NCBI GenBank assembly: GCA_951406725.2
Contig: OX597815.1
Location: 43,710,001 to 43,774,000 of the forward strand
Source of the DNA: Octopus vulgaris
Lineage: Eukaryota
Direction: 5' to 3'
Length of the DNA: 64,000 nucleotides
Positions 32,608 to 35,653 of the stretch are shown here, piece by piece (within the stretch, counting starts at the first letter, position 1; every line of letters starts with the position of its first letter). The position numbers and the translations under genes are program-made. The notes beneath the pieces were generated by a model. That model did no database searches and was not told the origin of the DNA. It worked only from the letters and a program-made list of their open reading frames with translations.

Positions 32608-34687
32608 TGTGGAATAAATAGAAAGTATAGCCTACTAAGATATAATCAAATATTTCAAACACCTCAAGATTAGAATTCACCCCTACTCGTCCAGTAGCAA
32701 AATTGAGATAGATGAACGGAGTCTCCGCTATGACGATGAGAACTTGAACGGGATGGGAGTTTCTCATTGTAGTCTTTATATTCACTGGAAGACTTGAACT
32801 CAGAACACTAAGATTAAGAAGAAATAAAAACAAATACATCGTACCCAGCTGTTTTTGGCCGTTATCTGTATTTGTCTATTTTTAGCAAGGGGGAACAGAA
32901 CAGCTAGAGCTGCGTGTCTTTGACTTGTGCATAGTGCACGCACCATATGGGCAACAGTATGACACCGTATAAATATCTCTTTTTCTAGTACACATACGTA
33001 CATTCACACATAAGCTCTCACACGTGCACAAACACGCGCGCACATATATATCTAACACATATGTATACACACATCACACATATATATACATACATATATA
33101 CATATCATATATATATATATATATATATATATATATATATATATATATATATACCTGCATATATACGTGTGTATGTGTGTTTGTGTATGTATATATATAT
33201 ATGTATGCATACATATATACAGAGATATGTTTACATACATACATACATACATACATACATACTTACATACGTGTATATATGTACGTGTGTGTGTTATATG
33301 ATATATATATATATGTATATATATATGTATACATATGTATATATATAATATATATATATTTATATTTTTATCCTCATATATATATATATATATATATATA
33401 TATATTTATGTATATATACATATGTATGTATGTTTGCATGCTGTGGACTGCTGAAAGATGCGTCGAGATGTCTTTATGGTACACGTTTTGCTTTGCTCAT
33501 TTTAAAGCTTCGAGCAACTTATCCCTTTCCAGATCTTGATACGGGCGATTTATCTCAGAAACGGGAGAGAGAGAGAGGAAGAGAGAGAGAGAAAGAAGTG
33601 CAGGAGTGGTACTTTATTTATCGTCTCCAAAATGAAATAATGAAAAGCAAAGTTGATCACGATTTCCATATTATATATATATATATATATATATATATAT
33701 ATATATATATATATATATATAATATGGAAATCGAGATCAACTTATATATTTATATTTAAATTTTGTACGACTCTATTATTCTTTCTATTCTTTCCTTCTT
33801 TCCTTCTTTCTATCAGCCCCTTCACACTTACTTCGTTCATTCCACTCTTCGTTCTTTCGTTCCCCTTCTCTCATATTTCCTGGCCTTCTCTTCATGCTCA
33901 CCTTCCTTCCTCTTTCGCTTCACTCTGTCCCTTTTTTCTCGCTCCTCCTTAATTCTTCTATCACTCTGCCTCTCCCTTTCTTTCTTCTCTCCCCACGTGA
34001 CCGGTGTTCGGCCAAACCTGACCTTTCTTTCTAGGTTCGACTACCATCCGTGCAACATCTTTATTCCTCCCTGTGCCCGTTAAACCTTATGTCGCTGCCG
34101 TAAGGCTTTACTTCCACACACTCCAGCTTAATTTAATTCGTCCTTAGTCGAAAGACACATGTTGTTAATGTTCTGTTATTTGTATTTGTGTACCATTTCT
34201 CCATTTTTTCCGCCCTTGTTTTCGTATACATTCGCTTGTTATCTTCCATGGAATCTAGTGCTATTAGCCTATTTTTTCCTTGGGGCTGGCCAGATTGGAA
34301 TAATCTGGAGTATAACCAGCCGAAATTGCAAAGATAATCTGGAACTCGACTGAGGAAAGAAAACTCTGAATGACCCGTTCTTGTCCCATTTTTGTATACA
34401 TATATATATGTATGTATGTATGTATGTATGTATGTATGTATGTATGTATGTATGTAAATATATATATACATATATATATATATATATATATGTGTGTGTG
34501 TGTGTGTGTGTGTGTGAGTGTACACATGTGCATCTGTGTCTTAAAAGCGATACCACGACGTCTACACATTTCTCACCTTGAACTTTCAACCTTGAACTTG
34601 TTCGCATAAACTGTCCCGTTTGTTATTCGTTAGCTACTGCACGCATTTTTTTCTCTCCTTCTTTCTGTGTTTTTCTCTCTCTGTGTA

Positions 34688-34725
34688 TCTTTCTGTTGAA
34701 GAGCGTAGGCTCGAAACGTTAAAGA
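34688..34725 (+). ncRNA. Minimal type I hammerhead motif (A6U variant), copy 1
   Basis: Stem I ucuuu/aaaga, core CUGUUGA, stem II gagc/gcuc, GAA, palindromic ACGU stem III, predicted cut after 34720. Confidence 0.65.
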
Positions 34726-35134
34726 CATGTTTTATTTATATTTCCTGAGCAGCCATACTAATACAATTGTTCGTTTGTTTTCCACCTGCCTTCGTCTTTT
34801 GTTTATTTTCATAAAGCTTCCCGTTATATATTATGCGCTCACGTGGTCTCACTTTCATCCTATATTCTACCAATACCACTATCAACACTTACCTCTACCT
34901 TGGATTTTCTTTACCTCTTGGATACTTACCATTGGCTGCACCTCTCTTTCGCGGATCAAAGTGACTTTGCATTGATGTGAAATCCTTAAAAAATATACCA
35001 CGACGTCTACACATTTCTCACGCTTGAACTTTCAACCTTGAACTTGTTCGCATAAACTGTCCCGTTTGTTATTCGTTAGCTACTGCACGCATTTTTTTTC
35101 TCTCCTTCTTTCTGTGTTTTTCTCTCTCTGTGTA

Positions 35135-35172
35135 TCTTTCTGTTGAAGAGCGTAGGCTCGAAACGTTAAAGA
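35135..35172 (+). ncRNA. Minimal type I hammerhead motif (A6U variant), copy 2
   Basis: Identical to 34688-34725; predicted cut after 35167. Confidence 0.65.
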
Positions 35173-35653
35173 CTTGTTTTATTTTATTTCCTGAGCGCCA
35201 TACTAATACAATTGTTCGTTTGTTTTCCACCTGCCTTCGTCTTTTGTTTATTTTCATAAAGCTGGGGCACCGCTTATGTAGACAGTATGTAATGTATGTA
35301 CATATGTAAATATATATATATATATACATATATATATATATATGTGTGTGTGAGTGTACACATGTGCATCTGTGTGCAAGAGAGAGGCGAGAGAAGGGGG
35401 TAGACAGAGATAACCGATGTGCCATAAAATAGAGAAAGATTGGTTGTACTTGTGAATTTCATGGGTTCTTCCTGACCATTAACAGGATCAATAAGAGCTT
35501 TATTTTTAACAACAGGACTTTCCTCATGATTTCACAATTATGAAAATTCCCTTATTTTTGGTCTACTACTTATAATTTTAACCATAGTTCAATGATGACG
35601 TGACATCATTCGAGAAAGTACATTTCAAGGCTTCCATACATCCAAAGTTAAAC

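Follow-up and report, generated by a model that had tools for sequence, protein, structure and literature searches.

An Octopus vulgaris insertion with tandem minimal hammerhead motifs and an apparently family-wide U6 core

Introduction

Minimal type I hammerhead ribozymes of Penelope-like retroelements, in the portions of PMC4209133 compared here, combine a short stem I, an extra base between positions 9 and 10.1, a G10.1-C11.1 pair, a palindromic 15.2-16.2 stretch, an NUH cut site, and a U-rich 5' flank, and they lie about 100 nt from the element 3' end. Their core is CUGANGA, with A6 in every core of the alignment portion compared, and a reverse transcriptase (RT)-endonuclease open reading frame (ORF) lies between the motifs. 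Penelope-like elements are described as using (TA)n targets and as forming partial tandems and non-autonomous head-to-tail derivatives (PMC8557442). In these pseudo-LTR derivatives, and in the Poseidon element PAc (PMC11167929), partial tandems resemble two terminal repeats, the targets are microsatellites, and the 3' end lies well downstream of the hammerhead cut. Whether the hammerheads help such elements to move or are mere passengers is debated in the sections of PMC8557442 and PMC11167929 drawn on here. Animal non-LTR retrozymes, as characterized in parts of PMC7229834 and bioRxiv 10.64898/2026.07.22.740005, are non-coding tandem units of 150 to 450 bp with a GC content under 50%, one canonical type I hammerhead per unit, target duplications that exceed 4 bp when present, highly self-paired circles, and a likely Penelope ancestry. 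Plant LTR retrozymes carry type III hammerheads in their LTRs and have 4-bp duplications. A natural change at core position 6, A6C, is described for the hammerhead of phage Bcep176 (PMC3088659, PMC7151607), with a measured activity below 0.1 per min in the part of PMC3088659 used here.

The window analyzed here is a 64,000-nt stretch of Octopus vulgaris DNA (assembly GCA_951406725.2, contig OX597815.1, positions 43,710,001 to 43,774,000 of the forward strand), and all coordinates below refer to it. It contains an insertion with a Penelope-derived tandem hammerhead architecture of the non-LTR retrozyme type, which is already known; the unusual property appears to be a core that has U6 throughout the family. 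The motif shows all of the minimal-hammerhead hallmarks listed from PMC4209133 except A6 (its core is CUGUNGA), but its stem II is only 4 bp and no RT-endonuclease ORF lies between the two motifs. The locus resembles the animal non-LTR retrozymes in its non-coding tandem unit, unit length, low GC content, possession of one type I hammerhead in each unit, and likely derivation from Penelope, and it may share a target duplication of more than 4 bp; unlike them, it has a minimal motif with a variant core, comprises only 1.6 units, and has a predicted circle that is not highly self-paired. It shares the partial tandem, the microsatellite target, and the distant 3' end with the head-to-tail derivatives and PAc, whereas the length of the duplicated host segment and the presence of a SINE-like filler are peculiar to this locus, and its partner enzyme is putative. 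The change at position 6 differs from that of Bcep176 in being U rather than C and in being the norm of a very abundant animal repeat rather than a feature of a single phage sequence, and the type I motif and far longer duplication set the locus apart from plant LTR retrozymes. The element would work as non-autonomous Penelope derivatives of the animal retrozyme (non-LTR) kind do. We assign it neither to the minimal-hammerhead consensus, from which its core departs, nor to the retrozymes, whose highly self-paired circles the predicted circle does not resemble.

Results and Discussion

Anatomy of the insertion

The window is animal DNA rich in microsatellites, with a GC content of about 36%. 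It contains a 724-base non-coding insertion (34540-35263) with two copies of a small hammerhead-ribozyme motif (Table 1). An earlier sequence-only reading had proposed two repeats of about 279 bp with identical minimal hammerheads and cuts after 34720 and 35167, and this was borne out by the alignment, in which 273 of 281 columns are the same (97.2%), and by a hammerhead descriptor. The eight differing columns comprise a 3-nt block at the left junction, one substitution, and four one-base indels. Each unit has one type I hammerhead, and the insertion contains two motifs. The absence of coding capacity, also claimed earlier, agrees with an ORF scan of the unit, in which the longest stop-free frame is 88 codons; a single 43-aa stretch from the insertion had no Pfam match, comparison of the unit with Penelope proteins yielded nothing better than an E value of 1, and no ORF was found in or adjoining the unit. 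In place of the RT plus GIY-YIG ORF that separates the repeats of autonomous Penelope-like elements, there is only a spacer of 166 nt, which starts with the sequence at which many family copies pass into (TA)n. The insertion reads best as 724/447 = 1.6 head-to-tail units rather than as two LTRs flanking a body.

Table 1. Features of the insertion and its flanks (window coordinates)
Positions	Strand	Feature	Remarks
34451-34539	+	Left copy of duplicated host segment	TA and TG tracts and exact 24-mer (34516-34539); likely target duplication
34540-34818	+	Repeat 1 (279 nt)	Insertion begins here, likely truncated at its 5' side
34688-34725	+	Minimal type I hammerhead motif 1	U6 at 34696; predicted cut after U17 (34720)
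34721-35167	+	Cut-to-cut unit (447 nt, 38% GC)	Putative RNA monomer or circle
34819-34984	+	Spacer (166 nt)	Remainder of the 447-nt unit; common to other runs
34985-35263	+	Repeat 2 (279 nt)	Its end is the element 3' end, 96 nt beyond the predicted cut
35135-35172	+	Minimal type I hammerhead motif 2, same sequence as motif 1	U6 at 35143, N7 at 35144, U17 at 35167
35264-35285	+	Filler (22 nt)	Private to this locus
35286-35375	+	Degenerate TATG tract (35286-35302), then right host-segment copy (35303-35375)	24-mer at 35352-35375

The cassette had also been described as bracketed by a duplicated host segment. The exact 24-mer and the TA/TG tract are indeed present on both sides, but the right duplicate does not directly adjoin the element, since the filler and the degenerate TATG tract, both overlooked in that description, intervene. 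With up to five mismatches allowed, the window contains no further copy of the 24-mer. The left copy of the host segment measures 89 nt and the right copy 73 nt, tract lengths being their only difference. The filler, taken with three bases shared at the end of the element, is similar in 18 of 23 columns to part of an abundant SINE-like repeat, and its first 13 bases have 13 other near matches in the window. If the duplication of 73 to 89 nt, with its filler, is a target duplication, it would exceed 4 bp, as do those of non-LTR retrozymes when present. The general picture, in which Penelope-type minimal hammerheads sit in a non-coding tandem unit flanked by a long duplication, is supported.

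The SINE-like sequences belong to two abundant families with 25 and 28 BLAST hits in the window (for example, 35838-36205 and 28142-28378), which look like octopus SINEs. The rows of a self-BLAST were considered as further copies of the element and rejected, since they represent these SINE-like repeats; no further copy of the element was found within the 64-kb window. A 243-bp unit of SINE-like sequence is present in 1.8 tandem copies at 51296-51744, and an (AAG)n-rich tract of about 630 bp at 37190-37821 gives rise to spurious poly-K/E/R frames.

The hammerhead motif

In the usual hammerhead numbering, and with cut sites judged by the NUH rule, the 38-nt motif consists of a 5-bp stem I, the core CUGUUGA, one extra A after A9, a 4-bp stem II (GAGC/GCUC) capped by a GUAG loop, then GAAA, a palindromic ACGU, and U17. 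The two predicted cuts are 447 nt apart. A minimal-hammerhead descriptor found two sites in the 64-kb window, both of them these motifs, versus none in 30 dinucleotide shuffles, and a looser descriptor returned the same two sites and no more. Rfam models detected no hammerhead here, either at the gathering score or up to an E value of 10; the matches ranked by E value were to miRNA models, driven by microsatellite sequence, and were discarded. The motif is of type I with a short stem I, a stem II starting with G10.1-C11.1, an extra base after A9, GAAA, a palindromic 15.2-16.2, and an NUH cut site, the triplet being GUU here and GUA in the family majority. Its departure from the minimal-hammerhead pattern is the core, which in both copies is CUGUUGA and not CUGANGA.

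The repeat family in public sequencing runs

Twenty of the 24 listed public runs (9 studies) contain at least half of the words. Four of the 24, all available as contigs, were aligned to a single unit (34819-35286), with 80% likeness required and variants listed from a 5% threshold upward, and 24,084, 10,581, 7,862, and 756 contigs aligned in these runs, which bear three organism labels. Summed contig depth in run X1, which does not represent copy number, peaks at 1.2e7 on the motif and falls to about 3e5 over the spacer and 5.5 over the filler; we read from this profile no more than that the family is very abundant, that its form with the spacer is rarer, and that the filler is private.

At position 35143, no base other than U was listed at the 5% threshold in any of the four runs, A being under 5% of depth. 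The neighboring free positions are variable: at N7, A accounts for 12 to 25% and G for 8 to 10% of depth across runs, and at N17, A accounts for 58 to 92%, with G not above 5%. The remaining listed changes in the motif are at two CpG positions (1 to 8%) and the outer base of stem I (6 to 21%). Because other bases stay below 5% at position 6 while free positions 7 and 17 vary, U6 is the norm of this repeat family rather than the decay of a single copy. A family consensus with canonical A6, which the sequence-only reading had named as a sign of dead copies, was looked for, and the contigs of all four runs gave U6 instead. The count covers relatives at least 80% alike, and 25 to 31% of the depth at 35151 fails to reach 35144, partly through contig breaks at the variable N7 and possibly through clipping of A6 relatives; U6 would still be the majority even if all of the missing depth were A6. 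Among the loose-end rows displayed, with 473 others hidden, the largest two of every run fall at 35136 and 35175, on either side of the 38-nt motif, which suggests that relatives with other flanks share the motif with U6, the upstream flank being of low complexity.

The join from repeat to spacer is present in contigs of runs X6 and X11, and X11 contigs also continue from spacer to repeat. The presence of both unit junctions in the contigs of other runs indicates that the 447-nt unit is no assembly artifact, a point that had been put forward for checking. Contigs of this kind look the same for tandem DNA and for a circle, and X11, which is only guessed to be RNA, was left out as evidence of transcription. 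An assembly error in the tandem or the flank duplication is accordingly very improbable, although one-base indels make up four of the eight differing columns and the extra G at 35022 is missing from all contigs aligned there, as might be expected of long-read consensus error, and no single aligned contig covers the whole stretch. Against it, besides the junctions, stand real substitutions between the repeats, the unique sequence of the spacer, and coverage of the join between repeat 2 and filler in X1. That join is covered in X1 only, and the missing filler in X6, X7, and X11 reflects absent cover rather than an empty site.

The 3' end of the family is also visible in the contigs. In run X7, 44 contigs run past 35263 into five spacer bases and then into (TA)n, which appears to mark a common family 3' end about 100 nt beyond the predicted cut, and the element at this locus ends within about 10 nt of it. 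These data bear on a second alternative, in which the tandem arose at the DNA level by unequal crossover or slippage between short family copies lying close together, and the flank duplication was a separate event in an unstable microsatellite. Such an origin would suit flanks that are microsatellites of differing tract length and a duplication that is long and not flush, and expansion of a Penelope terminal sequence by unequal crossover has been proposed in the part of bioRxiv 2026.07.22.740005 considered here. It is nevertheless quite improbable, since the unit junctions recur under another organism label whereas the filler occurs only in X1, at a depth of 5.5, which argues for the unit as a mobile form of the family, with this locus among its insertions; the proximity of the element 3' end to the (TA)n-joined family end counts against it as well. 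At 34967-34972, several contigs cease to match the spacer, one passing into (TA)n and two contigs of 1683 nt into unlike sequence, which possibly marks another 3' end of the family, some 250 nt beyond the cut, or the site at which the unit was derived by joining from a longer element.

Predicted folding and cleavage

The motif is predicted to self-cut slowly, if at all. Folding places U6 in a pair with A15.1 within a closed hairpin (probability, 0.96), and for the whole insertion RNA the active double hammerhead scores -84.7 versus -101.0 kcal/mol, a cost of about 16 kcal/mol in energies that leave out the tertiary core. In the part of a full mutational scan compared here (PMC9901934), every single mutant of the CUGA turn was low in activity, as is the natural A6C variant (PMC3088659). 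Release of a 447-nt RNA, which the sequence-only reading had inferred, is not supported and is doubtful, given the weakness of CUGA-turn mutants, the predicted closed hairpin, a circle that folds no better than shuffled sequences, and an element 3' end that lies 96 nt past the cut and not at it.

These predictions weigh on the alternative that the insertion is an active non-LTR retrozyme, in which a U6 dimer cleaves in vivo, the 447-nt monomer is circularized, and the insertion is a copy of 1.6 laps of the circle. The unit length, low GC content, lack of an ORF, and putative target duplication of more than 4 bp agree with the retrozymes of PMC7229834 in the portions compared, and the unit is closed on itself in X11 contigs. 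In addition, the repeats have one internal substitution and both carry the minority U17, as expected of copies of one template, N7 and N17 are the most variable motif positions, and circles have been proposed as templates of more-than-unit copies in the section of PMC4209133 used here. This alternative is still unlikely. The 447-nt circle folds at -52.7 kcal/mol, worse than the -59.7 ± 5.1 kcal/mol of 60 shuffles and unlike the highly self-paired circles described in that part of PMC7229834. The motif is also minimal; in the experiments compared from PMC4209133, motifs of this kind whose core is intact already show poor cutting, dimers included, and here U6 is in addition predicted to close the core. 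Likewise, eight of nine Xenopus retrozyme dimers showed no in vitro cleavage in the portion of bioRxiv 2026.07.22.740005 considered.

The structure that has been kept seems to be the hammerhead fold rather than the hairpin, because variation falls on free core positions, G17 stays below 5%, and N7 changes would disrupt the predicted closed hairpin. Slow dimer cleavage through the palindromic stem III is plausible on sequence grounds, although the insertion does not need it; cleavage of a dimer at a measurable rate in vitro is possible but somewhat doubtful, and a real circle-based cycle is unlikely. It is likewise improbable that the fixed-U6 family would cleave in vivo by a scheme in which the hairpin shuts the monomer, dimer pairing or a Penelope protein opens it, and 447-nt circles are retrotransposed. 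If this were so, searches based on CUGANGA would be blind to such elements and the census of animal hammerheads would miss a whole class.

A very abundant family with a presumably crippling core change and the rest of the hammerhead pattern kept amounts to a natural test of the role of the hammerhead, and two motifs spaced at 447 nt provide a ready-made natural dimer construct. Should the U6 motif prove unable to cut, either it is retained for some other reason or the element can do without cleavage in vivo. Should it cut, A6 is not required in the dimeric fold, and standard descriptors miss such families.

Proposed origin of the insertion

The insertion is probably a 1.6-unit non-coding U6 repeat that was copied into a TA/TATG microsatellite by a Penelope-like RT-endonuclease acting in trans, likely from an uncut tandem transcript, with slow or no cutting predicted for its ribozyme, and it is likely a young passenger of Penelope-like elements. 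From the observed anatomy, the U6 norm of the family contigs, the recurring unit junctions, and the (TA)n-joined 3' end, we infer the following course. An endonuclease would have nicked the microsatellite at the right junction, and a few bases may have been copied first from a SINE-like template before synthesis switched templates and continued on the element RNA from a point about 96 nt downstream of its second hammerhead site. The cDNA would then have crossed both hammerhead sites and ended at 34540, giving a 5' truncation, and second-strand joining about 75 to 90 nt further on would have duplicated the host segment. The template would be an uncut tandem or a circle, because a linear monomer released by cutting and primed 96 nt from its 5' end would be too short a template for 724 nt. 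A comparable arrangement is reported for the Poseidon element, in which, according to the part of PMC11167929 compared, internal priming occurs 111 to 118 nt into the ORF and the cut lies 26 nt into the ORF; by our arithmetic this places priming 85 to 92 nt from the cut, versus 96 nt here. In the same portion of that work, cleavage is dispensable in vitro and RNA-seq ends are absent at the cut.

Several points tell against this explanation. An autonomous partner with the motif was not found in the unit, its surroundings, or the supplement of Craig et al.; the variation at N7 and N17, with no G17 above 5%, is better explained by selection for catalysis than by a dead motif; the same anatomy would result from 1.6 rounds of copying around a circle; and the target duplication of 73 to 89 nt is long, with microsatellite tracts that differ between its copies.

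A decayed Penelope-like RT gene, with frameshifts and stops, lies on the minus strand at 26324-27234, with a remnant to about 26040, 7 to 8 kb from the insertion. Its best tblastn match is to an RT-bearing protein (E value, 9e-29), its 3' side is apparently truncated by a SINE-like repeat, and no hammerhead motif was found near it. This gene indicates that the genome has hosted such enzymes and provides no link to the 447-nt unit.

U6 motifs outside the family

No fixed U6 hammerhead family was found in print, although a 2017 short-stem-III survey and some supplements, which lay outside the search, may show U6. In supplement file 2 of PMC4209133, within the portion searched, CUGU matched in stems and flanks only, and the window motif was absent from the searched supplement of Craig et al. 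The exact motif had no occurrence in metagenome contigs, and its two matches in viral contigs were both chance occurrences in coding DNA.

A relaxed pattern that forced U at position 6 matched 59 loci in metagenome contigs, some of them duplicates, and stem II had at least five pairs in 19 of the 59, versus a shuffle mean of 1.4 and a maximum of 7. These loci were considered as other fixed U6 families and rejected, since the search pattern itself imposed the U. Among 19 loci checked, eight had a partner copy covering position 6, with A in six and U in two. U6 elsewhere therefore appears mostly sporadic, and a fixed U6 is claimed only for the family of the window.

Five metagenome loci sit behind a recognizable Penelope ORF end. 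In these (L048, at about 3001-3037 on the minus strand, and L013, L016, L017, and L038), minimal hammerheads lie directly behind the ORF end, 14 nt after the stop in L048, with a 7-bp stem II that is varied yet paired; the copies themselves have U6, and their siblings often have A6. Inverted hammerhead pairs with U6 in both copies are present at L049, L011, and L009, which indicates that the change is heritable in another Penelope family.
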